Origin: Acidobacteriota bacterium | Lineage (GTDB): Bacteria; Acidobacteriota; UBA890; WLXD01 | Reading direction: 5' to 3' | NCBI GenBank assembly: GCA_965205505.1 | Contig: CBDBHB010000008.1 | Coordinates: 480,001 to 544,000, forward strand | Length of the DNA stretch: 64,000 nt | Shown here: in pieces, positions 15,884 to 59,402 of the stretch | Position numbering within the stretch: position 1 is the first letter of the stretch | How the letters are laid out: each line of letters begins with the position of its first letter | Position numbers and translations under genes: made by a program | The notes under the pieces: generated by a model | What the model was told of the DNA's origin: nothing | Databases searched by the model: none | What the model saw: the letters and a program-made list of their open reading frames with translations, nothing else

Positions 15884-16696
15884 TCAGTAGGGCCGATCGG
15901 CGAGGAGCTTCTGGAGTACGTCTCTGCGCAGGCCCATTCTGGTCGCGAAGCGACCCCCCGGATGAGGCAGAAACCAAACGTGCATCATCTGCGGCCCGCG
16001 GTACGAAGGCGTACCGATAGCGCACGTTCCATCGGCGAGGGCTGGAACGTGTGTGGCCCTGCCATTGTTGAAGCATCGCACCCTTGACCAGGTATGGAAG
16101 TGCCAGAGGGTTAGCGGGCCACCTATCTGCGGCCCTTCGTCCTCCGGGCTGTTCACGATGAACATGAAGGCGAGCAGTTTCTTGCCTAGCGCTTCGCCGG
16201 AGTACATCAGAAACTCGGGGCGCTGCGGATCAAGGACACGCTCATCGTTGATGAAGTCGGTGTTTAGGTAGTGCGAGCGATCCCCAGGCATGGGCTGGTA
16301 GCCGTCCGCTAGGGCCTGCTCCAAGTCCAGCCAGCCGTGTGCTTTGGCACTGGCAACACTCGTTGCCAGCAGCTCATCGGCAGCCCCTTGCTGCTCAGCA
16401 GTCGGCTCTGAGTTCGGGAACCGGTTGAGCTCGTATATCAGCATGCCTGTAGCCGGCGGCTTCATGTCCACCTCGGATTCCGGACCACAGCCAAGCCTCT
16501 TTCCATCGCTCTGCCACATGCAGACCTCGCGTTCGACGCTGAGGCCGGTCGGTGGGGTGTCAGCTTGATCGGCGGCATTTGCCGAGGCGGCGATCAAAGC
16601 AGCAACGGCGGCAGCGCTCGCCAACCGCAAGACAGCGCTTAATCGCCTTCGGGGCCTTTGCGTTGTTGGAGCGAACTTGACTGCGTCTTGAACCAT
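15884..16696 (-). CDS. Hypothetical secreted protein
   Basis: Signal-like [14 protein letters not shown]; motifs HY.N.....D..LDP.RPE.LMY, GG.LT.WH.H and MMHVW. Confidence 0.6.
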
Positions 16697-16731
16697 GTCT
16701 TGGGTCCACCGTTCAGATCTGATGCCTATTA

Positions 16732-17009
16732 CTAGTGGCCTGTAACAGATGATCGTTGCATATCGTGGTGGCGAAATAGGTCCGGATGCCAGGCGCGACG
16801 ACGAGACGATGTTTGCCCATCGTGGAGGAGGAGCAACGCCGCAGACGGGCCGATTTCGCCGCCATCCTCCGGACAGATGGGCAGTTGCGGGCGATATCGG
16901 CGTTGCGCCTCGTCGACGATGCCCACTGCATCGCCTTCCTCCCCGCTCCTTGATCTCACCCGCAAATCCCATCTGCGATATGCAACGATCATCTGTTACA
17001 GGCCACTAG
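16732..17009. mobile_element. CTAG-flanked 270-bp palindromic element, type A
   Basis: CTAG at 16732-35 and 17006-09; perfect 30-bp TIR TGGCCTGTAACAGATGATCGTTGCATATCG; two internal hairpin half-units. Confidence 0.85.
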
Positions 17010-17063
17010 TCGTATTCATGGCTCTTGCCGAGCTCATTTGTTCCTAGCCGCGACTTCCGAGAT

Positions 17064-17118
17064 CGACCTGACCCCGTGGTTAGTACCCACTCTTATCTCA
17101 CCAACTCGGTGCTGACAA
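17064..17118 (-). mobile_element. Isolated right end of the same IS3 seen at 1-494
   Basis: Near match to the reverse complement of ~440-494 (GACCTGACCCC..GGTTAGTACC...CTTATCTCA..AACTCGGTGCTGACAA). Confidence 0.75.
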
Positions 17119-17199
17119 GATGAGACGAGAAGGCCAGCCACTTCGTGGGGTCGGTTCTGAACCCCACCCTCATCGGTCGTGAACTCTATGTTGCGTTCG

Positions 17200-17285
17200 G
17201 GCTCGACGGGCATGCTCGCTCCGTCCAGGAAGTCGCGACGGTTGATCTCCCGGCTCATGCCCAGCTCGCGGTCGCTCTTCTTCAA
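17200..17285 (-). pseudogene. 5' remnant of a fourth SpdH-like oxidoreductase
   Basis: KKSDRELGMSREINRRDFLDG matches the N-termini of the genes at 24338, 26410 and 30371. Confidence 0.7.
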
Positions 17286-17306
17286 ACGTCTCCTGGGGAA
17301 GAGCCC

Positions 17307-17585
17307 CTAGTGCTCCTGATCATAAGTACGGTGACGTTTGCAGGAGCGAGATGCGGGCGAGATCAAGGAAGGGTGAGGAAGGCGATGCCTTAGCCATCCT
17401 CGACGAACCCTGACGCCGAGATCGCCCGCATAACGCTCCTGCCCTCCGGGTGGCCGCGGGACCGGCCACCTTGGGCGTCGCGGCGCCTCGACGATACACC
17501 CAGCATCGCCCTCGTCGCCGCTCCTACAATTCGTCCCGGTCGCGCGCGCCACAAACGTCACCGTACTTATGATCAGGAGCACTAG
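17307..17585. mobile_element. CTAG-flanked 271-bp palindromic element, type B
   Basis: CTAG at 17307-10 and 17582-85; perfect 30-bp TIR TGCTCCTGATCATAAGTACGGTGACGTTTG; same internal motifs as type A. Confidence 0.85.
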
Positions 17586-19057
17586 TCTTGATTGCGGATC
17601 GAGTACAGGCGGCTCTGAGTCCGCAGGAGCAAGCGATCACCGACGATGGCGGGCGAGGCGAGCGTCCACTCGTTCAGGTCGTTGATATGGGACAGCCGGT
17701 ACTCCCGGCCGGCCTCGATCACGAAGGTGTCGCCTTCCTCGCCCATCGCGAAGATCTTGCCGTTGTATGCCCACGGCGTTGTGGTAAACGCTCCGGCGCC
17801 CCGTGCGACGCGGGAGCGATACAATCGCTCGCCGGTCGCGACATCGTAACGGGCGAAGATGCCTTTCTCGGTGAGCACGTACAAAGCGCCGTCGTAGATG
17901 ATCGGCGTCGGCAGATACGTGCCGCCGGCGACAGGGTTGTACCAGACGACATACTCGTTCTTGTCCGCCGGCGCTTTCGGGGTGATGTCTCCCAACGCGC
18001 CCGGACGGATCGAAGCGATGGCCCTGTTTTGCTGTCCGGAGGACCCGGAGGTCACGAAGAGGTGGCCGCCCCAGACGAACGGACTCTGGATGGTCGTGGT
18101 CGCCATGCCGTGCATCCACCACAGCTCCTCGCCCTCCAGGCTATAGCTGATGACTGCGCGGGGTCCGACCGTCACGATCTCGGTGCGCAGCTCGTGCTCC
18201 CAAACGAAGGGCGTCGACCAGCCGGTCCTTCGCCCTTCGCCCAAGTCGCGCAGCGTGCGCCACAGCTCCTTGCCGGTCCGTTTGTCGAACGCGGCGATGA
18301 AGCCCTGCTCTTCGTTGTCGTTCAATACGATCACGCGGTCACCATGAAGCGCGGGAGATGCGCCGGTGCCGAAATCCCGGACCTTCTGAAACAGCTTCAA
18401 CGGCGTCGCCCACACCGGGTTCCCGTCCAAGTCGAAGGCGAAGAGCCCAAGGTGTCCTAAGTAGACGTAGACGCGCTCACCGTCCGTCACTGGTGTCTCG
18501 GACGCGAAGCTGTTCTTTCGGTGGCGCCCGCCCGGCGGGTTGCCGTGGTAGACCTGACGCTCCCAGAGGCGCGCGCCGCTCGCGAGATCGAAGCAGTAGA
18601 GCATCAGGTCGATTACGACCTCGTGTGGCATCTCGCGATCGCGCTCATAGAGCCGGTCGTTGGCCTCCTCGCTCGACAAACCCTCGGCGCGCAGCTCCGC
18701 GAGGTACTCATTACTGAAATCGGTCCCCAACGAGGGCTGCTTCATCGGCCGATCGCTGACGGCTGAAGTCAGGAAGACCTTGCCGTCCCAGACGATTGGC
18801 GAAGACCATCCGACGCCGGGTACCTCGATCACCCACTCGACGTTTTCGTTCGTCGACCACCGCTCCGGCAGCCTCGGGTTGTCGGCGATGGGGAGGGAAT
18901 CGGGCCCCAGGAAGCGAGGCCAGTTGTGCGTGGGCTTGTCCTCGTCAACGGCCTGGAGAGGACGTGCCCCGGTCGGAGCGGGAGGTTCCTGTCGGACTTC
19001 GGCAGCAACGCAGCCCACCGCGACCAGCAAAGCTACAATCGCCCGGCTAGCGCTCAT
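17582..19057 (-). CDS. PQQ-binding-like beta-propeller protein
   Basis: NWPRFLGP, GWSSPIVW, ASETPVTDGERVY, GWSTP, ASPAIVGDRLLLRT. Confidence 0.85.
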   Translation of the reverse strand: MSASRAIVALLVAVGCVAAEVRQEPPAPTGARPLQAVDEDKPTHNWPRFLGPDSLPIADNPRLPERWSTNENVEWVIEVPGVGWSSPIVWDGKVFLTSAVSDRPMKQPSLGTDFSNEYLAELRAEGLSSEEANDRLYERDREMPHEVVIDLMLYCFDLASGARLWERQVYHGNPPGGRHRKNSFASETPVTDGERVYVYLGHLGLFAFDLDGNPVWATPLKLFQKVRDFGTGASPALHGDRVIVLNDNEEQGFIAAFDKRTGKELWRTLRDLGEGRRTGWSTPFVWEHELRTEIVTVGPRAVISYSLEGEELWWMHGMATTTIQSPFVWGGHLFVTSGSSGQQNRAIASIRPGALGDITPKAPADKNEYVVWYNPVAGGTYLPTPIIYDGALYVLTEKGIFARYDVATGERLYRSRVARGAGAFTTTPWAYNGKIFAMGEEGDTFVIEAGREYRLSHINDLNEWTLASPAIVGDRLLLRTQSRLYSIRNQD

Positions 19058-19282
19058 CGATCAGTCCTCCACGAATTCGGCGGCAATCCGATTGCTATTC
19101 ATGGGCCGCTGGTTTGCTCGAACCTGCCCGGGATCCACTGATTGTGCACGATCAGCCGCGGATAGCTGAGCCGGCGTGCCGATGGCCGCGCGGGTGCTAC
19201 GGGACGGATCAAAGAACGCGATGGGCGCACTCGATGCAATCGAGGATACGCCACCGGTTGTGGCGCACCGGCGCGTGCGAGA

Positions 19283-20875
19283 ATGCCGCCGGCAACGTTC
19301 CCCACGCAGGAGGACACCTTGAACGGATACAGAGGTGCGATCGTGCCGATCGCCGCGGTGCTGCTGCTTATCGGAGCCGCGCAGCAGGGCCAACCCGGAG
19401 TCGATCAGGAGATGGTTGCGCGCATCCGCGAGGAGGGATTCCACCGCTCGCAACTCGCCGACACCCTCTCCTACATGACCGACGTGCTCGGCGCGCGCCT
19501 GACGCTGTCCGACGACATGAAGCGGGCACAGCGCTGGGCGATCGGTGAGATGGAGCGGATCGGGTTGCGCAACACAGTCATCGAGCCTTTCATGGACTAC
19601 GGCGTGAGCTGGGACAACGAGTACGTGTCGCTGCACATGATCGAGCCCGACTACCAGCCAATGGTGGGCTACCCGCTGACGCACACACCTGGCACGGAGG
19701 GTCGGCTCCGGCTGCAGGTCGTCCTCGCCGACGTGCGGATGCGGGGCGATCTCGAGCCGTTGCGCGGCCGACTCGGTGGCAAGGCCGTGCTTTCGACCCC
19801 GCCGGCGGTGATCGACCTGGCACGGCTGAACGCGGGCGTTCCGCGGCGGACCACCGAAGAGCTGCGGGAGATCGCCGGGGCCGCCGCCATCCCGCCGCGG
19901 CCGAGGCCTCGCACTCCGCGAAACCCGGACCTGCTGACCGACGACGAGCGGATGGCGTTCTACAAGGCCGAGGGCGCAACGCTGATGCTCGAGTCGCGCA
20001 GCGGCTGGCCGGGCGCGGTCCGTGGCTTTGCCCGGCCCGGCACCAAGGTCGACATGTGGGGACGCGACGAGAGCCTCGAGTCGCTGCCGATCGTCGCGGT
20101 AACACCCGAGCACTACAACCGTATGGTCCGTATCCGGCAGCGCGGCATCGATGTGGCGATCGAGGTGGAGATCCGCAATCGGATCGGCGCAGCGCGCCAG
20201 CAGGCGAGCAACGTGCTCGGCGATATCCCCGGCTCCGATCTCGCCGACGAGCTGGTGATGCTCGGCGCTCACTTCGACACCTGGCATGCGAGCCCCAACG
20301 CCGCCGACAACACGTCGGGCGTGGCGGTGATGCTGGAGGCCGCCCGGATTCTCACGGCGCTCGGCGTGCAGCCGCGCCGCACCATTCGCGTTGCGCTGTG
20401 GGCGGGAGAGGAGCAGGGTCTCTTCGGCTCACGCGAGTACGTCAAGCAGCACTTCGGCGACCCGGCCGACGCGAGCGTTGGGCGGACGCCGGCCTACGAG
20501 AAGTTCTCGGTGTACTTCAACCAGGACTACGGGCCGGGGCAGTACCGCGGCATCTACCTGCAGGGCAACGAACATGTGCGGCAGACCTTCGCGGCCTGGA
20601 TGGAGCCATTCCGCGACCTCGGCATGACCACGATCGCGTCGACCGGGGTGGGTAGCACCGACCACGTGTCGTTCGACAACGCCGGCCTGCCAGGCTTCCA
20701 GTTCCTGCAGGACCGCGCGGGCGGCACCGGCGGGCACACCAACCTCGATTTCTTCGACACGCTGCCGATCGACGACCTGATGAAGAACGCGGTGATCGTC
20801 GCAGCGTTCGTCTACCACGCGGCGATGAGCGACGAGCGCGTTCCGCGCAAGGACATCCCTAACAGGCCGTGGTGA
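19283..20875 (+). CDS. M28/M20-family metallopeptidase (start probably TTG 19319)
   Basis: GAHFDTW, ADNTSG, WAGEEQGLFGS, STDHVSF. Confidence 0.88.
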   Translation: MPPATFPTQEDTLNGYRGAIVPIAAVLLLIGAAQQGQPGVDQEMVARIREEGFHRSQLADTLSYMTDVLGARLTLSDDMKRAQRWAIGEMERIGLRNTVIEPFMDYGVSWDNEYVSLHMIEPDYQPMVGYPLTHTPGTEGRLRLQVVLADVRMRGDLEPLRGRLGGKAVLSTPPAVIDLARLNAGVPRRTTEELREIAGAAAIPPRPRPRTPRNPDLLTDDERMAFYKAEGATLMLESRSGWPGAVRGFARPGTKVDMWGRDESLESLPIVAVTPEHYNRMVRIRQRGIDVAIEVEIRNRIGAARQQASNVLGDIPGSDLADELVMLGAHFDTWHASPNAADNTSGVAVMLEAARILTALGVQPRRTIRVALWAGEEQGLFGSREYVKQHFGDPADASVGRTPAYEKFSVYFNQDYGPGQYRGIYLQGNEHVRQTFAAWMEPFRDLGMTTIASTGVGSTDHVSFDNAGLPGFQFLQDRAGGTGGHTNLDFFDTLPIDDLMKNAVIVAAFVYHAAMSDERVPRKDIPNRPW

Positions 20876-20896
20876 AAGTGTGGTGGGCCTGGTTAC
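20859..20896. repeat. Orphan left TIR of the type-C element at the end of the M28 gene
   Basis: CTAA followed by CAGGCCGTGGTGAAAGTGTGGTGGGCCTGG (29/30 match to the type-C TIR). Confidence 0.75.
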
Positions 20897-21009
20897 CCAT
20901 AGCATCGTCAGCCGGCCCTCGCGAGCCACGCCACGTACTCCGCGTGATCGAGCACTGGTCTGCGGCCCTCCCTCGATACCACGAGCTGTTCGATCAACGC
21001 ACCGGCGGT

Positions 21010-22180
21010 TCAGCGACTGCCGAGAGCGTACAGATGCCCATCCGCGCTGCCCACATACAGCACGCCGTCGCGCAACACCGGTGAGGACAGGAACGCGCCG
21101 AGGTCGAGGAACATCTCCACCGCCGCGGCGGCTTTGTCTACCGTGTACCCACCGCCGAAGAGCTTCTCGGCATCCCAGCCGCCGTCCGGCAGCAGGATGC
21201 CGTGGGTGTCCTGCATGCTGGCGTCCGTACGAAACTGCCATCTGACGTCCCCGCTGACCGCATCGATAGCGAACAAGAGGCCGCCACAGGTTCCGATGTA
21301 GAAGGTCTCACCGACGATCGCCGGTGACGCGTAGATGCAGGTAGCCAGAGAAACGCCGAACAGCTCCTCGCCGGTCGTCGCGTCGATCGCGCGCAACATA
21401 TTGGTGTCTGAGGTGCCAACGTAGACGCGGTTACCGTAGATGGCGACAGAGCCCAGAACCCATGACCCGCTGGTGTCGAACTTCCACAGGGCGTCTCCGG
21501 TACGGGCGTCGACAACGTGCATGCCGCCGTCGCGGCCGCCAACGTAGACTCGGCCGTTGGCGATGACCGGCGAGGACTGCAGGCCGTGCTGGTTGTAATA
21601 GGTGGGGTCGACGCCGGCCTGGAAGTGCCAGCGCTCCTCGCCCGTGATGGCGTCCACCGCGTAGAGACGACTCTCCATATTGCCGACGTAGACGGTGCCC
21701 TCGGCAATCGCCGGAGTGGAGTGCATCGTGTCGGCCGTCTCGAACGCCCATCGCTCGGCACCGCTATGCGCATCGAGCGCATAAAGTACCCCCTCGCCGG
21801 TGCCGAAGTAGATGACACCGTCGGCGACCACCGGCGACGACAAGAAGAAATCCCACGAGTCGGTGTGCACCTCTCCTTGCGGGGTCATGCCATCGAGATT
21901 CGCGGCGCGCCAGCGGCGCTCGCCGCTGGGCTCGAACCTCCAGACGAGTGCGCCCGAGTCAGCATTCAAGGCGTAGAAGACACCGTCGTAGCTACCGAAG
22001 AAGACGAGCCCGTCGGCAACCGCGGGCGAGGAGCGCACCTGCCCGCCAGTTTCGAAGCGCCACGCCTCACGACCCGTTTCGATGTCGACCGCGTAAAGGG
22101 CGCCGTCGTCGCTGCCGAAATAGACCCTGTCACCGATCACCGCCGGCGAGGAAAGCACCCGCCCGCCGGTGGCAAAACTC
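21010..22180 (-). pseudogene. PQQ-repeat beta-propeller protein, 5' truncated
   Basis: Repeated SSP.V.DG.VYFGS.DG.LYA.DA.TG...W.F; no signal peptide or start codon upstream. Confidence 0.7.
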
Positions 22181-22185
22181 CAGAC

Positions 22186-22442
22186 AATGGAGGGCTCCTG
22201 CTCGACGCATGGAGGCCTGGGGAAAATGGTTCGAGTCGATCGCCGACAAGCAGCTCGACCAGGGCGGTTTCAGCAGTGGGCGTGAGATCTCAAAAAGCGG
22301 AACCGAAGATCTGCCGTGGGGCATGGAGACCATCACCGGCTTCAATATCATCGAAGCCGAAGATCTCGACGCGGCGGAAAGAATCGCACAAGAAAACCCA
22401 TACATCGCAAGCATCAGGGTCTATGAAATTAGGTCGATGTAG
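22186..22442 (+). pseudogene. YCII-related protein fragment
   Basis: [11 protein letters not shown]...ITGFNIIEAEDLDAAERIA...IRVYEI. Confidence 0.65.
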
Positions 22443-22558
22443 GCCGATGGCCCGACCCGGCGCGCGTCATCGTCACCGGCCTGCGGGCTCCTCAGGAGGG
22501 GGCTCCGCAGGCGCCGATCGGTCGAGTTCGACGGCAGAAGCGTAAGCGCGATCTTACG

Positions 22559-23377
22559 TTACTTGAGTGTCACCCAGATCAGATCGATCGTCGTGTCGCC
22601 GGTGTTCCCTGATTCGTGCTGCGCGCTCAGGGGAACCGCGTTCGACCACCCGACGGAGCCGGTCTTCGAGAACGGTGACGGATCGCGCTGCACGCCGCCG
22701 CGGCGTCCCGACCAGATGCCTCCCTTGATGTGGATGTAGACCTGGTTGCCGGGATGCGAGTGGATGCCCTCCCACTCACCGGGGCGGAGGTTGAACCGTT
22801 GTACGACGACACGCTCGTTCTCGAGGAGCACGTCACCGTCGGGATCTGCCAGGTTCGGGTAGGTCAACACAAACTGCGTGTCGGCAGCGGCAACCGGCCC
22901 ATCTTTCTTCAGCGTCACCCAGATCAGATCGATCGGGGCATCGCCGGTGTTGCCGGATTCGTGCCCCTCGCTGAGCGCGATCGGCTCCATCCAGCCCACC
23001 GAACCGTCCTCACGGGCGGCACCGGAGGTAGCCTCGCCTCCTCCTCTACGGCCTGACCATTGCCCGCCCTTGACATGCACGAAAACCTGGTTGCCGGGAT
23101 GCGAGTGGATCCCCTCCCACTCGCCCGGACCCACGACGAACCGTTGCACCACGACAAGCTCGTTCTCGAGCAGCACCTCGCCGCCAGGATTCGCGAGGTT
23201 CGGGTAGGTCAGCAGAAACTGCTCGTCGCTGGCGGCAGCAGGCGCCGGCTCGGGCCGCGTCACAGCTTGCTGACTACCGCCACAGGCGGCAGTGAGGAGG
23301 ATCAAGACAACGTTCAATATCAGGCTACGTCGCACGGTTTTCTCCAGCGCACGATGAGGGGAGCGGGCTGGGGGCAA
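22559..23377 (-). CDS. Lipoprotein with two tandem cupin-like domains
   Basis: Lipobox LTAAC; near-identical repeat LLENE.VVVQRF...PGEWEGIHSHPGNQV...HESGNTGD..IDLIWVTLK occurs twice. Confidence 0.75.
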   Translation of the reverse strand: MPPARSPHRALEKTVRRSLILNVVLILLTAACGGSQQAVTRPEPAPAAASDEQFLLTYPNLANPGGEVLLENELVVVQRFVVGPGEWEGIHSHPGNQVFVHVKGGQWSGRRGGGEATSGAAREDGSVGWMEPIALSEGHESGNTGDAPIDLIWVTLKKDGPVAAADTQFVLTYPNLADPDGDVLLENERVVVQRFNLRPGEWEGIHSHPGNQVYIHIKGGIWSGRRGGVQRDPSPFSKTGSVGWSNAVPLSAQHESGNTGDTTIDLIWVTLK

Positions 23378-23423
23378 TCGCAGGCGGCCCGCTCGCAGCT
23401 CGGTGTCGACCGCATGGACCGCT

Positions 23424-23843
23424 CTACATCCAGCCGAGCTCCTTCATCGCCCACGGGGCATTCCATATCTTGATCATGCGCTCCACTTCATCGCTCTCGT
23501 TCATGGTTATTACATAGACATAGTGCGTGTTCGTTTCTTTGTTGGTCGGAGGGACCGGACCACCGTCGCCAGTATGCGTGGCGTGGTACGTGGCGAAGAA
23601 AACCGCGCTTCTCGTCGCCTCGTCATAAGAAGAGGTGTGTAGGTCGTAGGTCGCGCCGGGAACTGTCACGTTGGCAAAGCCAGCCATCCACTCGCAGTAA
23701 GCCTCGACCGTGTGTATGTCGACCAGAGGTTCACTCTGCGCGGCGAACGTCGCACCGTCAGCGACATACTCCTTACAAGACTCCCATCCCGTTGCTGCGT
23801 CACAAGCCTTGAAGAATTTCCTGGCGTTGTCGAAAGCGCTCAT
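23424..23843 (-). CDS. SnoaL-like / NTF2-fold ester cyclase family protein
   Basis: ATFAAQSEPL...Y..WM, THTGDGGPVPPT, KIWNAPWAMKELGW. Confidence 0.75.
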   Translation of the reverse strand: MSAFDNARKFFKACDAATGWESCKEYVADGATFAAQSEPLVDIHTVEAYCEWMAGFANVTVPGATYDLHTSSYDEATRSAVFFATYHATHTGDGGPVPPTNKETNTHYVYVITMNESDEVERMIKIWNAPWAMKELGWM

Positions 23844-23930
23844 CCTCTCCTCCAATAGATGTTCGTGCTGCTCCGGAAGCGACCGGAATCCGGCGTATGG
23901 TATCCGGTGTGCGGGAGTGAGAGTATGACC

Positions 23931-24209
23931 CTAGCAGGCCGTGGTGAAAGTGTGGTGGGTCTGGCAACAGGGTCTTGCGAAGTGCAGGCAAGGAGAGAGG
24001 AGGAGGCGATGGTTACACCATCGTTGACGAGGAACGACGCAGCATACGCGCGCAACCCCCTGTCGCCCGAAGGGTTACGGCGAGTTGGGGCCATTTGCGG
24101 CGTTGGCCTTCCTCGACGATGGCTTGGGCATCGCCTGTGTCAGGCTGCCTTGCATCTGGCCCCAACTGGCCGTAACCAGACCCACCACACTTTCACCACG
24201 GCCTGCTAG
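23931..24209. mobile_element. CTAG-flanked 271-bp palindromic element, type C
   Basis: CTAG at 23931-34 and 24206-09; perfect 30-bp TIR CAGGCCGTGGTGAAAGTGTGGTGGGTCTGG; same internal motifs as types A and B. Confidence 0.85.
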
Positions 24210-24337
24210 GTCTAGGGAGTCGCGATCACAGCCACTCGGGCGAGCCACTAGCCGACAGTCCTGACCGGTCCGCTCATGAGTAGCGGATCAACGCGATGCA
24301 GGCGTCAACCCGAGTGCGCGAAGACTGGAATGGGCGC

Positions 24338-26353
24338 ATGAAGAAGTCCGACCGCGACCTGGGGATGGACCGGGGGATCACCCGGCGCGACTTCCTGAAC
24401 GGCACCAGCGCAGCGATCGGCGGCGCGGGCGCGATCGGTGCGGCGGTGCTCCCGGGTGCCAAGGCCGCCGCGGCGGAGCCGCCCAGTACCTCTTCCGCCC
24501 GAACACCGTCGGCGCAGGCCTCGCCCGAGTCCGGGGTTTACTACCCGCCAAAGCTGACCGGGATGCGCGGCAGCCACGAGGGGTCTTTCGAGGTCGCGCA
24601 CGAGATGCGTTACGGGAAGACCTGGGACGAGGCGGAGGACACCGGCGAGAGCTACGATCTGATTGTCGTGGGGGGAGGGTTGAGCGGGCTGGCCGCCGCG
24701 TGGTTTTTCAAGAAAGGGCTCCCTGAATCGAAAGTGCTCGTGCTCGACAACCACGACGACTTCGGCGGCCATGCCAAGCGCAACGAATTCATGGTGAACG
24801 GCCGCCAGGTGATCGGCTTCGGCGGCACGATGTCGATCCACGGCGCCAACAGCTACACGTACGAGGCCAAGGCGCTGCTGGAGGAGATCGGCATCGACAA
24901 ACAGCGTTACCTGGCGACCACCGAGTCAGACCGCGGCCTCTACCGGAGGATGGGCCTGCGTCCGGCCGTGTTCTTCGACCGCGAGACATTCGGCGAGGAT
25001 CGGCTAGTGGTCGGGAGGCCGCGGCGGAGCTCCGATCCAGCCCGACCCGGCTCGCTCACCTGGGAGGAGTTCCTCGCCAAGACGCCGCTGTCCGACAACG
25101 TCAAGAAAGACATGCTCCGACTCTACGAGGGCAAGCGCGACTACCTCCCTGGCTTGTCGCTCGAAGAGAAGAAACAGCGGTTACGTAAGATCAGCTATCA
25201 GGACTATCTGCTCGAGGTCGTGAAGGCGGATCCGGGGGTGATCCCCTACTTCATGCGGCGGGGCGACGCCAATGGCTCGGCCGGGATCGACTCCTGTAGT
25301 GCCTGGGGCGCCCTCCGCACCGGGTGGTTCCCGGGCTTCGATGGGCTCGGGGTGGAACGACCGCCGCAGAGCTGGCTCGGCCCCGGCGACGACTTCGGCA
25401 ACAGCATCCACTTCCCCGACGGCAACGCCGCGGTTGCCCGGCTGATCGTCAGATGGCTGATCCCTAAGGCTCTCCCGGGCACGACGATGGAAGACTCGGT
25501 GGCGACGCCCGTCAACTATGCCGCCATCGACGAGGACGGAAGCCCGGTTCGCATCCGGCTCAACAGCACGGTGGTCAACGCCCGCCACGTCGGCGAGCGC
25601 CGCACCGCCAGCGAAGTCGAGGTGACCTACGTGCGCCACGGGAAGGCGCACCGTGCGCGCGGCGCAACCTGCGTAATGGCCTGCTACAACGCCATGATTC
25701 CCTATCTCTGTCCCGACTTTCCGGAGGAGCAGAAGGAAGCCCTGCACATGGCCGTGCGCAGGCCGCTTGTCTACACCAGCGTCGTGTTGCAGAACTGGAA
25801 GGCCTTCGAGAAGCTCGGCGTGGCGAACATCTACAGCCCAGGCGGATACCACGAGGTAATTGACTTGGACTACGGCCGAAGCCTCGGCGACTACCAGTGC
25901 GCACAGACGCCCGAGGATCCGATGGTGTTGCACCTGCAGCGCTTCCCGATCCACCCTGGGTTGACGGCCCGCGAGCAGTTCCGTGCCGGCCGCGAGGAGT
26001 TGCAGTCGACCTCGTTCGAGACCTTCGAGCGCAATATTCGTGATCAACTGGGCCGTGCCTTGGCGGATGGCGGCTTCGATCCGGCACGCGACATCGAGGC
26101 CATCACGGCGAACCGCTGGCCGCACGGCTACGCTGGCGGCGCCAACGACCTCTACGACCCCGAATGGGGATATGACGAGGTGCCCTGGGTTCGCGGCCGT
26201 CAGCGCTTCGGTCGCATCACGGTGGCCAACTCCGACGCCGGCGCCACCAGCTTGACCCACGCCGCCATCGACCAGGCACACCGGGCGGTGCAGGAGCTGT
26301 TGACCGACGTCATCCGTCCCGAGTTCCAGTACCCGTGGGCCGAGCGAACCTGA
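24338..26353 (+). CDS. Tat-exported FAD-dependent oxidoreductase, spermidine dehydrogenase (SpdH)-like, copy 1
   Basis: ITRRDFLNG Tat motif, GMRGSH.GSF, VVGGGLSGLAAA, DNHDDFGGHAKRNEF, NRWPHGYA. Confidence 0.85.
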   Translation: MKKSDRDLGMDRGITRRDFLNGTSAAIGGAGAIGAAVLPGAKAAAAEPPSTSSARTPSAQASPESGVYYPPKLTGMRGSHEGSFEVAHEMRYGKTWDEAEDTGESYDLIVVGGGLSGLAAAWFFKKGLPESKVLVLDNHDDFGGHAKRNEFMVNGRQVIGFGGTMSIHGANSYTYEAKALLEEIGIDKQRYLATTESDRGLYRRMGLRPAVFFDRETFGEDRLVVGRPRRSSDPARPGSLTWEEFLAKTPLSDNVKKDMLRLYEGKRDYLPGLSLEEKKQRLRKISYQDYLLEVVKADPGVIPYFMRRGDANGSAGIDSCSAWGALRTGWFPGFDGLGVERPPQSWLGPGDDFGNSIHFPDGNAAVARLIVRWLIPKALPGTTMEDSVATPVNYAAIDEDGSPVRIRLNSTVVNARHVGERRTASEVEVTYVRHGKAHRARGATCVMACYNAMIPYLCPDFPEEQKEALHMAVRRPLVYTSVVLQNWKAFEKLGVANIYSPGGYHEVIDLDYGRSLGDYQCAQTPEDPMVLHLQRFPIHPGLTAREQFRAGREELQSTSFETFERNIRDQLGRALADGGFDPARDIEAITANRWPHGYAGGANDLYDPEWGYDEVPWVRGRQRFGRITVANSDAGATSLTHAAIDQAHRAVQELLTDVIRPEFQYPWAERT

Positions 26354-28410: not shown

Positions 28411-28485
28411 TCGCCGCACCCCGAGCCCCATCGATCTCATGAGACAGGGCGCCGTCGGGGCTGGGATTGGGGAGAGACATCGCTT

Positions 28486-28558
28486 CTAGCAGGCCGCCTT
28501 GCATCTGGCCCCAACTCGCCGTAACCAGACCCACCACACTTCCACCACGGCCTGCTAG
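28486..28558. repeat. Internally deleted 65-bp type-C element between two CTAG
   Basis: CTAG-CAGGCCGCCTTGCATCTGGCCCCAACTCGCCGTAACCAGACCCACCACACTTCCACCACGGCCTG-CTAG matches 24141-24205. Confidence 0.8.
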
Positions 28559-57827: not shown

Positions 57828-59402
57828 ATGGCCAAGCTACGCCGACTTCTAACACATGGGTACCTCCCTGAGGAGTTGCCGCAAGCCTTCAACAGCAACT
57901 CCTTTGGCCGACTACTTGGGGTAGCGAGCGCGAGTCCGCAACGAGGCTTCTATCGAACAAGGGGCAAAAAACTTCCTGTATATGAACTGGCCCGCCACAA
58001 CATCGCGCGCGCCGGTCAACTACGACGAGTTCTTTCGATCCCGAACCCTCTCGGACACTACTCTCTGGCACGTGAGATCGCCGTTAATTGGGAGCCCATT
58101 CAATCTCAATGTCGACGGAGTTCTCTTTCCCGAACCACGCCGTTGGCGGTGGACCAAGGTCCCCGGGCACTCATGTCCGAGACAGGAATCGAAGATCGGG
58201 TCCGACTTCGAGCTAGGTACAGAGCAACTGGCGGGTACCTTCTACGTGCGGACATCCAGAGCTTCTATCAATCGATCTACACGCACTCCATCCGCTGGGC
58301 GCTCTACGGTAAGGTCAAAGCAAAGCAGAACCGTTATGGACGCAACTTAGGCAACAATCTCGATTATTGGATTCGCCAAGCACAGGATCAGCAGACCAAG
58401 GGCATTCCTATCGGGCCCGACACCTCGTTGGTTATCGCAGAGATCGTGTTGAGTGCTGTCGATGAGGCTCTCGAAAAGAAGCTCGGTCGCGTCGTGGGAT
58501 TCAGGGCAATCGATGACTACGAACTCGCCTTCAAATCGCGAGACGAGGCCGAGGGAGCACTCGCCGGCCTCCAGACAGAGCTAATGCGCTTCGAGCTCCA
58601 ACTCAATCAGAACAAGTGTTCTGTACACCCACTGCCGGAGCCTATCACGCCGCTATGGACGACACAGTTGCGCACCTTCAAGATCCGATCGACTAGTCGC
58701 GAGCAGATCTCGGACCTCATGGAGTTCTTCAGCTTGGCGTTCGAACTTTTCCAACAATTCTCCGCTTCGTCGATACTACGATACGCAATTGGGCGGACAA
58801 GCAATGAGAACATCGACCCGGCGGCATGGCCCGTCTACCAAGATCTCCTGCTTCAGTGCGCCACTTCCGAGTCAGGCACCATCAGGTGGGTGCTTGCAGA
58901 GCTAGACCGCTACGCGAGCAATAGCGGGTGCTTGGATCACGACCGCATCCAACAGATGCTCACCGGTCTCATTACTCGCCATCTGCCCCTTGGCCACGGA
59001 AGTGAGGTGGCGTGGGCCATCTGGACCGCCATCAAACTAAAGATCAGGCTCGGGCATGAAGCGAGCGTCGATCTGACTCAAATGGAGGATCCTCTAGTAC
59101 CCATCCTGGCACTGGATGCGGACGCAAGAGGGTTGTTTGACTCTCATCTGGATAAGGGCCCGTGGAGCGCTATGATGACCGTGCAGGATCTCCACGGCGC
59201 GAATTGGCTGCTCGCCTACGAGGCTAGCGTTCAGGGGTGGCTTCCCTCCGTGGGAACACGCGATCACATAAAAGACTCGAGAGGATTTTCTTATCTGCGT
59301 CGGAACGATGTCCGCTTCTACAATCGCGCCGCGTCCGCTCGCTACATCAAGACGTGGCCGAGTCGGTTCACATTCTCGCAGCTGATTGGCTATGGCATCT
59401 AG
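57828..59402 (+). CDS. Stand-alone UG/Abi-type reverse transcriptase (putative anti-phage DRT/Abi polymerase) with a helical C-terminal domain
   Basis: GYLPEELP, RRVLSIPNP, ADIQSFYQSIYTHSIRWA, GIPIGPDTSLVIAEI, FRAIDDY, LQLNQNK; C-terminal EVAWAIW and WLLAYEA; lower GC than its flanks. Confidence 0.88.
   Translation: MAKLRRLLTHGYLPEELPQAFNSNSFGRLLGVASASPQRGFYRTRGKKLPVYELARHNIARAGQLRRVLSIPNPLGHYSLAREIAVNWEPIQSQCRRSSLSRTTPLAVDQGPRALMSETGIEDRVRLRARYRATGGYLLRADIQSFYQSIYTHSIRWALYGKVKAKQNRYGRNLGNNLDYWIRQAQDQQTKGIPIGPDTSLVIAEIVLSAVDEALEKKLGRVVGFRAIDDYELAFKSRDEAEGALAGLQTELMRFELQLNQNKCSVHPLPEPITPLWTTQLRTFKIRSTSREQISDLMEFFSLAFELFQQFSASSILRYAIGRTSNENIDPAAWPVYQDLLLQCATSESGTIRWVLAELDRYASNSGCLDHDRIQQMLTGLITRHLPLGHGSEVAWAIWTAIKLKIRLGHEASVDLTQMEDPLVPILALDADARGLFDSHLDKGPWSAMMTVQDLHGANWLLAYEASVQGWLPSVGTRDHIKDSRGFSYLRRNDVRFYNRAASARYIKTWPSRFTFSQLIGYGI

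Follow-up and report, generated by a model that had tools for sequence, protein, structure and literature searches.

Correia and Nezha elements are flanked by TA and fold as long RNA hairpins, and we know of no shared internal module across terminal inverted repeat (TIR) families described for these two or for ERIC. In the pneumococcus, RUP is a short, non-coding element with IS630-like TIRs. It lies at TA targets in about 100 intergenic copies and, in the account given in parts of PMC2229807, is thought to be moved by IS630-Spn1. The CIR repeats of Caulobacter and Brucella are presented in the same source as RNA models with two long arms, a linker and a short conserved motif. ERIC is placed, as MITEEc1, under IS630 in a section of a MITE census (bioRxiv 10.1101/2024.01.18.576219). 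The autonomous elements IS630 and ISY100, of the IS630/Tc1-mariner group, duplicate TA according to passages of PMC2170065, and a title cited there names the preference of IS630 for TA within CTAG (Tenzen and Ohtsubo 1991). REPs, as portrayed in parts of PMC3733652 and PMC2817692, are 20-40 nt long, show no target duplication and need the Y1 HUH enzyme RAYT.

The window studied here, a stretch of 64,000 nucleotides from an Acidobacteriota bacterium (genome G000), holds three elements, E1, E2 and E3. We read them as MITEs (non-autonomous DNA transposons) of the IS630/Tc1-mariner type, with a probability of roughly 0.85. Each contains two opposed hairpin half-units, put at about 100 nt in an earlier note on this DNA and at about 105 nt here, which folding and a covariance model confirmed. 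The elements, for which no strand is assigned, their parts and two remnants are located as follows.

16735-17006, no strand, MITE E1, TIR type A, 272 bp counting the terminal G and C
16732-16735 and 17006-17009, CTAG flanks of E1
16733-16734 and 17007-17008, TA duplication of E1
16736-16765, plus strand, left 30-bp TIR of E1, with the right copy at 16976-17005
16762-16868, sense on the plus strand, half-unit 1 of E1 (cmsearch with R1: 84.7 bits, E 7.8e-17)
16871-16979, sense on the minus strand, half-unit 2 of E1 (cmsearch with R1: 95.2 bits)
17310-17582, no strand, MITE E2, TIR type B, 273 bp, TIRs at 17311-17340 and 17552-17581
17307-17310 and 17582-17585, CTAG flanks of E2
17337-17445, plus strand, half-unit 1 of E2 (R1: 94.4 bits)
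17447-17554, minus strand, half-unit 2 of E2 (R1: 76.2 bits)
20859-20896, plus strand, remnant, solo type-C left TIR with the first half-unit bases, flank CTAA
23934-24206, no strand, MITE E3, TIR type C, 273 bp, TIRs at 23935-23964 and 24176-24205
23931-23934 and 24206-24209, CTAG flanks of E3
23961-24069, plus strand, half-unit 1 of E3 (R1: 67.5 bits)
24071-24179, minus strand, half-unit 2 of E3 (R1: 101.9 bits)
28478-28558, plus strand, remnant, final 81 bp of a type-C element, terminating in CTAG

Coordinates and sequence agree with the earlier note on the lengths between the CTAGs (270, 271 and 271 bp), on CTAG at both sides and on perfect 30-bp TIRs. The T/C difference at position 31 could be read off all three elements, and the central TCC-TCC-GGA, CCC-TCC-GGG and CCC-GAA-GGG are all present. 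With CTAG counted, the arms of E2 are 100% complementary over 34 nt and those of E3 over 35 nt; the arms of E1 are complementary at 91% over 44 nt with flanks, the TIR itself being perfect over 30 bp. The TAG stop codon of a minus-strand ORF at 17582-19057 is provided by the right CTAG of E2. Folding energies of E1, E2 and E3 were -160.7, -170.8 and -174.3 kcal/mol (z = -12.6, -12.8 and -11.3), a stability that none of 200 shuffles matched for any of the three. The covariance model picked up all six half-units at E <= 1e-12. ORFs across the elements are inconsistent in frame among families (270 vs 271 bp) and their translations are junk-like, which argues against any coding capacity of their own. 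A coding reading of the Shine-Dalgarno-like GAGGA and the ATG of the core was ruled out, since the loop of the core hairpin P3 varies in length and no reading frame is therefore kept. No sigma-70-like promoters or intrinsic terminators were found within the elements. The earlier note could name no described family that fits; cmscan of window positions 16000-25000, on both strands, gave no Rfam match at E <= 1. A full-text literature search returned no description of the family, which the supplementary tables of preprint 10.1101/2024.01.18.576219 might list.

The elements insert at TA, preferably within CTAG, and duplicate the TA. At one empty/filled pair of sites, G000 reads ...ATCTAAATACC... 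and genome G004 reads ...ATC-TA-[GCAGGG...CCCTGC]-TA-AATACC, with TA duplicated at a C-TA-A target. The flanking CTAG is therefore the target C-TA-G plus the terminal G and C of the element; the target duplication is TA, not CTAG, and the element proper takes in these two bases. Of the elements bounded by TIRs, 136 in all, 83 are flanked by CTAG at both ends, and 14 more have nTAG/CTAG or CTAG/CTAn, flanks that are predicted by a TA duplication. The empty site proposed as a check in the earlier note was found for E1, whose orthologous site in G004 carries a single CTAG. At seven MITE loci examined, no orthologous copy was common to G000 and G004, and the elements are presence/absence polymorphic between congeneric genomes. 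Breaks of synteny between congeners fall at their positions; they also share CTAGs with one another and with ISs, and nest into each other. E3-like copies of 96-97% identity were recorded in both G000 and G004. Some phylum-level relatives show 3-bp TAA/TTA flanks.

Copies are numerous in the studied genome, and intergenic. TIR matches at up to 5 mismatches number 525, far above chance, and 323 BLAST regions cover 55,084 bp in total, about 0.9% of the genome. There are 372 half-units and 119 doublets, every doublet being arranged '+-'; short forms of the element carry a single half-unit. Copies were found in 22 of 40 relatives and the half-unit in 34 of 150 other Acidobacteriota genomes; throughout the phylum, the core is enclosed by TA-flanked TIRs of many unrelated kinds. 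The module also occurs in three MAGs that bear the labels Gemmatimonadota, Myxococcota and 'delta proteobacterium' (taxonomy as per these labels); in one copy of the Gemmatimonadota MAG, P3 is swapped for a different, longer hairpin and the flanking boxes are kept. A search of viral contigs with the core pattern gave no match. By crude gene calls, 5.2% of MITE bases lie in predicted coding sequence vs 70% genome-wide, and of the 54 gene 3' ends next to an element, 32 are no more than 5 bp away from it, an abutment on stop codons that is expected anyway from the CTAG target. With the same crude calls, orientation relative to upstream genes is weakly biased for family C (17 vs 6, p = 0.035) and unbiased for A and B. 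Near-full-length elements appear as contigs in three metatranscriptome runs from two studies, a record of presence only and not of transcription, strand, ends or level.

The earlier note had set different TIRs against a conserved interior. This contrast holds between families but not within family C, the most abundant one, where the TIR is the best-conserved part (0.85-0.88 vs 0.75-0.78 for the interior, in nine genomes). Nor are all the TIRs unrelated: A, A2, A3 and B are diverged homologues (identities 0.73-0.87, with A-B at 0.63), and C alone resembles the others no better than chance (0.57-0.63, for a 99th percentile of shuffles of 0.60-0.63). Some elements are chimeric and combine two TIR types, for example A2/C or B/A3. 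Judged by sequence, the A2 and A3 TIRs match the ends of IS630-family ISs in the studied genome or its sister genus. G000 has six matches to PF13358, and two ORFs tested against NCBIfam NF033545 (IS630 family) scored 272.9 and 292.5 bits for a cut-off of 100. TIR A3 aligns with the end of the type-2 IS of G000 at 0.77, the first 15 of 15 bases being identical, and TIR A2 with the end of a 370-aa IS of G007, from the sister genus, at 0.77 in a scripted alignment and at 24/30 when compared by eye. TIR B resembles one IS end more weakly, and the match of A is likewise weaker; the IS in L133 resembles the MITE TIR of L045. All matching IS630-family ISs sit in CTAG. The conservation of the TIR in family C, and the IS ends that match A2 and A3, contradict the idea of a variable, homogenised arm. 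The refuting case named in the earlier note, a separate autonomous IS with this interior for each TIR, is borne out by half: separate ISs match the A2 and A3 TIRs, but the half-unit module was not found inside them. No IS with a type-C TIR was found in 26 genomes searched with PF13358 (30 loci inspected), and 13 of 20 MITE-positive relatives gave no PF13358 match, including G003 and G011, each 96% complete and assembled in 2 and 3 contigs, respectively.

Other sources of mobility were considered and rejected. PF13586 and PF13340 (IS427/IS1031-group, DUF4096 / DDE_Tnp_1_2) had no match in G000, so that an IS5-family MITE of that group would have no cognate transposase there. The single PF01609 IS of G000 has one end slightly like TIR C but no TA or CTAG flanks, and its ends are unrelated. 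Retro-mobility was set aside as well. Of the two reverse transcriptases of G000, the one in the window, checked as a candidate partner, is Drt4/Drt6-like and of defence type with no half-unit nearby; the nearest half-units to the other, at C9:297046, are 16 kb away. Genes between like TIRs 1.0-2.2 kb apart include no evident transposase in the two pairs inspected (C8:961286-962648, C8:853492-854853), as judged from translations alone.

The core pattern reported in the earlier note, CAAGG..GA(C/G)GA(A/G)..GGCGATG-loop-CATCG..GA(C/G)GA(A/G)..(A/G)ACGC, is shared by all six aligned half-units. The stems diverge yet still pair, with 92.6% of cells paired vs 71.1% in shuffles (0 of 500). When a covariance model was built from the half-units, as had been proposed, the stems covaried strongly: 509 cells were altered on both sides vs 164 expected, in an alignment that is fitted to the model and in which many rows were found with the core pattern. 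Among the rows not picked by that pattern, 30 of 38 keep GGCGATG. The arms of P3 are an inverted repeat, GGCGATG-N7-CATCGTC, that does not vary and shows no covariation, and the GA(C/G)GA(A/G) boxes beside P3 are conserved as sequence. Between lineages, G-T outnumbers A-C (56 vs 17) and purine-purine outnumbers pyrimidine-pyrimidine (138 vs 27). The sense strand is stabler in 84 of 96 half-units by RNA parameters (p = 1e-12) and in 46 of 96 by DNA parameters, these energies being computed among related, non-independent sequences. Since the fold is favoured on one strand and under RNA energy rules only, we read the module as an RNA structure, and with these models the core looks selected as RNA. 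In sense-oriented resident copies, G-T and A-C number 39 vs 55 (20 vs 29 for singletons only), and singleton rates are alike in core, stems and loops. Individual copies decay neutrally.

The earlier note had leaned towards mobilisation or use through single-stranded cruciform geometry by an HUH/RAYT-like enzyme, the TIR being an arm and not a transposase site. The conserved interior between families with different TIRs, the strong covariation and the inverted doublets, which recall REPINs, would suit such a mechanism, and a single-stranded, strand-specific fold is indeed indicated. However, G000, which is 96.3% complete, has no match to PF01797 (Y1 HUH, RAYT) or to PF07282 (TnpB). The TA duplication at a CTAG target, the TIRs that match IS630 ISs and are best conserved within family C, and the absence of a strand preference by DNA energy rules also speak against it. 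This proposal is already largely refuted and we give it hardly any credit. An IS200/IS605-derived identity (PATE, omega-RNA) was rejected too, with TIRs present and no TnpA (Y1) or TnpB gene. It is also unlikely that each copy serves the host as a domesticated 3'-UTR element (transcript stabiliser or insulator, processing site, protein sponge) for which the TIRs are mere delivery. Such a role would agree with the 32 of 54 gene 3' ends next to elements, the RNA-specific energy asymmetry, the elements among RNA-library contigs and the weak orientation bias of C, and bacterial MITE RNAs are known to regulate adjoining mRNAs, as exemplified in parts of PMC2229807. Yet recent mutations are unfiltered for the sense fold, singleton rates of the core equal those elsewhere, none of the seven loci retains an orthologous copy in G000 and G004, and stop-codon abutment follows from the CTAG target regardless.

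It seems quite improbable that a host protein, architectural or regulatory, recognises the core as double-stranded DNA and, through the two sites of each element, bends the stiff 270-bp DNA so that the TIRs meet; IHF in Correia elements would provide the analogy. A protein site could account for the invariant P3 arms without covariation and for boxes conserved as sequence, but it leaves the compensatory P1/P2 changes, the G-U and purine-purine asymmetry and the RNA-only energy difference unexplained, and the Gemmatimonadota MAG copy keeps its boxes around a longer, different hairpin in place of P3. About as improbable, in our view, is an interior without function, shared only through recent ancestry and recombination and with stems kept paired by palindrome-homogenising repair. 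The chimeras do show recombination between families, and the neutral decay of resident copies would fit. Against this, near-invariance of the core throughout the phylum contrasts with stems that, in the same module, have changed almost wholly, arm homogenisation would not yield a strand-specific G-U excess, and many unrelated TIRs enclose the module, which also turns up in MAGs assigned by label to three other phyla.

We therefore return to E1-E3 as MITEs of the IS630/Tc1-mariner type. As a kind of element they are ordinary selfish DNA; the conserved internal module across TIR families is the unusual part. On the evidence of the ends, IS630-family DDE transposases would move the elements in trans, by cut-and-paste, through recognition of the TIRs. 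The interior would consist of two inverted copies of the hairpin module, common to the TIR families by shared descent and by recombination in the conserved interior. Compensatory change would keep the stems of the module paired, with the core sequence nearly invariant. As an RNA structure, the module would always present its sense half 5'-proximally in a read-through transcript from either side, and selection would work in lineages still transposing, not on each resident copy. We suggest tentatively, at somewhat below even odds, that the module RNA aids spread of the element or establishment of new insertions. An effect of each copy on the host in 3' UTRs comes next and is less likely, while a double-stranded protein site and a lack of any function are improbable to an equal degree. 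A stronger proposal, rather doubtful, is that the half-unit represents an undescribed structured RNA class, carried as cargo by TA-inserting MITEs with a variety of TIRs and required for their own proliferation; the RNA might then, for instance, act on the IS630-type transposase or its expression, or make new insertions survivable. We know of no DDE cut-and-paste transposase that needs an RNA fold; if the proposal is true, it would mean an RNA requirement in such a system, not known for this superfamily. The module outlasts its TIRs, with a near-invariant core in freely covarying stems and RNA-type strand-specific folding in spreading lineages. Should spread depend on the module, IS630/Tc1-mariner transposition would have an RNA component that acts in cis or in trans; should the module act on host transcripts, it would be a widely distributed portable 3'-UTR element. 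Recognising the elements aids annotation of these uncultured Acidobacteriota.

Among known systems, REP/REPIN sequences resemble the present elements as high-copy palindromic units, often in inverted doublets; a REP/REPIN-RAYT identity was rejected in view of the TA duplication, the units of about 105 nt, the lack of a GTAG/CGTC head and the lack of a RAYT gene in G000. Correia, ERIC (MITEEc1) and Nezha are, like the elements here, TA-flanked bacterial MITEs that fold as long RNA hairpins, but they are shorter and have one TIR family each, a distinction drawn by description only. In CIR repeats, compared by their description in parts of PMC2229807, conservation falls on a GANTC methylation site within a loop, whereas here it falls on a stem with purine-rich internal loops. 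The TA duplication is common to IS630 and ISY100, and the G000 transposases score as IS630 family; in contrast to these autonomous elements, those studied here have no transposase, and the ISs seen are not the source of their interior. RUP inserts beside other mobile elements, in the part of PMC2229807 devoted to it, much as CTAGs are shared among E1-E3 and their relatives, and between these and ISs. By description, RUP is set apart by its 107 bp without a two-hairpin interior, whereas the elements described here measure 272-273 bp and carry their module across TIR families.

Re-inspection of the sequence confirmed the positions and anatomy that an earlier note had assigned to the three MITEs of the window. 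They are listed here by type of terminal inverted repeat (TIR), with two remnants.

16735-17006: E1, full MITE, TIR type A
17310-17582: E2, full MITE, TIR type B
23934-24206: E3, full MITE, TIR type C
20859-20896: element remnant
28478-28558: element remnant

Counting the CTAG, E2 and E3 have arms that pair without mismatch over 34-35 nt, and E1 has a perfect 30-bp TIR. In the predicted fold, the TIRs form the outer stem and enclose two ~105-nt hairpins with a mini-hairpin of 3 bp between them; z-scores against shuffled sequences are -11.3 to -12.8, and none of 200 shuffles was equally stable for any of the three. Each hairpin is a half-unit (HU), two of which stand inverted in a full element. 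An alignment showed that the core described in the earlier note is present in all six HUs.

The whole genome (G000; 5.98 Mb, 9 contigs, 64% G+C), in which the window corresponds to C8:480001-544000, was scanned. Perfect inverted repeats numbered 107 pairs, nearly all with one of a few TIR types. The types A, A2, A3, B, C and C2 gave 525 matches at ≤5 mismatches, BLAST returned 323 element regions totalling 55,084 bp, and an HMM found 372 HUs. Clustering of 104 full-length copies gave families C (44), A (20), B (20), A2 (10) and A3 (5), with 5 singletons. The HUs formed 212 groups, namely 119 doublets, 79 single HUs and a remainder of nests. All doublets are oriented '+-' without exception, so that whichever strand is read, its 5' HU is in sense orientation. 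Some elements are short, with a single HU (~175 bp), and others are dimers or are piled up in nests or in tandem. In one pile-up of truncated elements outside the window (G000:C8:1309990-1310690), 3 or 4 tandem CTAG-ended units of 51 bp each combine a type-C TIR with 17 further nt.

The earlier note had proposed a search for empty single-CTAG sites in relatives. E1 is absent from the congeneric genome G004, where its site is a single CTAG. A clean empty/filled pair between G000 (ATCTAAATACC) and G004 (ATC-TA-[GCAGGG...CCCTGC]-TA-AATACC) shows that the target duplication is TA and that the element termini are G...C. CTAG stands at both ends of 83 of the 136 elements bounded by TIRs, and a further 14 differ in the outermost base alone, as expected from TA insertion at C-TA-G-like sites. 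A preference of IS630 for TA within CTAG is stated in the title of a reference in PMC2170065. CTAG is scarce in G000, with 5,853 sites as compared to 19,712 expected by base composition (3.4-fold under-represented). By a rough estimate, ~9% of all its CTAGs flank these elements, which thus generate an appreciable part of the sites that they target. Going by crude home-made gene calls, the elements are intergenic, 5% of their bases lying within predicted CDS as compared to 70% genome-wide. With the same calls, neighbouring gene 3' ends lie ≤5 bp from the element in 32 of 54 cases, and elements often start at a stop codon. The TAG stop of ORF 17582-19057 lies in the right CTAG of E2; insertion of G...C at C-TA-G regenerates TAG.

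CTAG is also the site of every IS630-family IS found in G000 and its relatives. The two IS ORFs tested were assigned to the IS630 family with NCBIfam and to HTH and DDE_3 domains with Pfam. The transposase of the G000 type-2 IS is at C9:263590-264779. One end of this IS is identical to TIR A3 over the first 15 of 15 bases (0.77 overall), and its other end shows likeness to TIR B (0.63). In a sister genus, an end of a 370-aa IS matches TIR A2 at 0.77 by script alignment and at 24/30 by eye. An IS at another locus (L133) has ends similar to the TIR of a MITE at locus L045. The MITEs would be mobilised by IS630-family transposases. No autonomous partner for type C was found among the IS630-family ISs of G000 and relatives, and a PF13358 search of MITE-positive relatives gave no match in 13 of 20. 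G000 also carries a separate single-copy IS of 1,084 bp with a PF01609 transposase (G000:C8:559608-560693; ends GGCGTTGGTGCATGGCTC). Its ~380-bp internal-deletion derivative at C9:2059880-2060259 is a conventional MITE-like derivative, separate from the HU elements.

Other identities were considered. An HUH/RAYT-like enzyme, given as an example in the earlier note, is very unlikely. No Y1 HUH gene is present in G000; TnpB and IS427/IS1031-type genes are likewise absent from this genome. The reverse transcriptase of the window, a 524-aa ORF at 57828-59402 (+), matches PADLOC Drt6 (536.9 bits) and Drt4 (530.7 bits) and is therefore of the defence type. No HU lies within 20 kb of it and it is unrelated to the MITEs. 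The module is absent from the ISs found. No Rfam family matched.

The earlier note had also described a reverse pattern, with conserved interiors and variable TIRs. Between families this holds, as interiors are homologous along their whole length (0.66-0.88) and the type-C TIR is at chance-level identity with all other types. Within the A/A2/A3/B group, TIR identities are 0.73-0.87, with A-B at 0.63. Within family C, however, the pattern fails. There, conservation across nine genomes from seven genera is highest in the TIR (0.85-0.88) and lower in the interior (0.75-0.78), which is the ordinary MITE profile. Reassortment of TIRs and interiors is seen in chimeric 270-bp elements, which carry two different TIR types and have the crossover within an HU.

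Covariation was analysed in 102 distinct HUs. Overall, 92.6% of cells pair, as compared to 71.1% when shuffled (0/500) and 30-55% with slid partners. Changes on both sides of a pair were found in 509 cells against 164 expected and in 20 of 28 pairs. Covariation was never seen in helix P3 (GGCGATG/CATCGTC, with a conserved G-U). The boxes CAAGG, GA(C/G)G.A, GAGGAG and AACGC are conserved in sequence. Conservation of the core is partly ascertainment, many rows having been picked by the scan pattern; in the 38 rows not so picked, GGCGATG is kept in 30 and CGATG in 37.

In the variable helices, non-Watson-Crick cells are strand-biased, with G-T 56 vs A-C 17 and purine-purine 138 vs pyrimidine-pyrimidine 27. 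With RNA parameters the sense strand is the stabler in 84 of 96 HUs, by a mean of 5.2 kcal/mol (p = 1e-12, overstated because the sequences are related). With DNA parameters it is the stabler in 46 of 96 (p = 0.56). The same filter was sought in the resident copies of one genome and was absent (G-T 39 vs A-C 55; singletons 20 vs 29). There, the singleton rate is 1.4% for TIRs, compared with 0.7-1.0% for the core, stems and loops. None of seven loci compared has an orthologous MITE copy in G004; for E2 and E3 the flanks map to separate positions, and at locus L168 all four MITEs are absent or at breaks. Resident copies would thus be neutral with fast turnover, and selection for an RNA-type fold may act only in lineages still transposing or establishing.

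Logan contigs from three metatranscriptome runs of two studies cover elements nearly end to end, one of 270 nt spanning 16736-17005; this is evidence of presence only, since strand, transcript ends and level are not readable from contigs, which may also derive from carried-over DNA. Promoter-like and terminator-like sites are absent from the elements. Orientation with respect to the abutting upstream gene (home-made gene calls) is 17 vs 6 for C, 5 vs 4 for A and 3 vs 7 for B, weakly indicating a bias for C and none for A or B.

Synteny between G000 and G004 is broken at or beside MITEs in every place examined (window 17010-17306 / 17586 onward and 23931 / 24210 onward; L168 13627-13976), which suggests a role of the repeats as markers or mediators of rearrangement. 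A second repeat, a 71-nt inverted repeat with 82% complementarity, adjoins the MITEs at 17214-17284 and 24339-24409 and recurs at L168 10794-10850 and 12150-12200. A related motif, GATGAGA.GAGAAGGCCA, opens an insertion of 1.7 kb that is specific to G000, lies at a CTAG and terminates in a type-A MITE. The outer flank ...TCTCATAGA|AGTGGCC is common to several type-A copies. Two direct-repeat pairs with 345-bp spacing at 22559-23243 (D1, 204 nt, 77%; D2, 103 nt, 75%) suggest that a stretch with the appearance of coding sequence has undergone an internal tandem duplication of ~345 bp.

Beyond G000, the C element itself was found in 22 of 40 relatives. The HU model gave hits in 34 of the 150 other Acidobacteriota genomes searched (the unpublished genome G071 counted among the positive ones), and 26 of 105 genera are positive when that of the window is counted. 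At the phylum scale, the core scan gave at least 107 stretches, nearly all in Acidobacteriota MAGs among the matches listed, and the elements that hold the core there are inverted repeats of ~270-295 bp, TA-type in their flanks and diverse in their TIRs. TA-flanked single-HU elements are also found in MAGs with the labels Gemmatimonadota and 'delta proteobacterium', and a Myxococcota MAG has one single-HU element with long TIRs. In a Gemmatimonadota MAG (L072 4177-4302), an HU carries a longer, unrelated hairpin in place of P3 and keeps the flanking boxes GCAAGG..GACGAG and GAGGAG..AACGC. In some phylum-level relatives (L028, L035, L037, L059, L063 and others; genome_contigs MAGs), the element is bordered at both ends by TAA or TTA and has TIRs of the form (A/G)GGCCTGTC... 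or AGAGCCTGTCC.... Such flanks suggest a 3-bp duplication, in which case the same core may be carried by another group of transposases.

Overall, the elements are IS630-type MITEs, hence of a known kind, but form a new superfamily. Their unusual, testable feature is the shared, RNA-like structured core.
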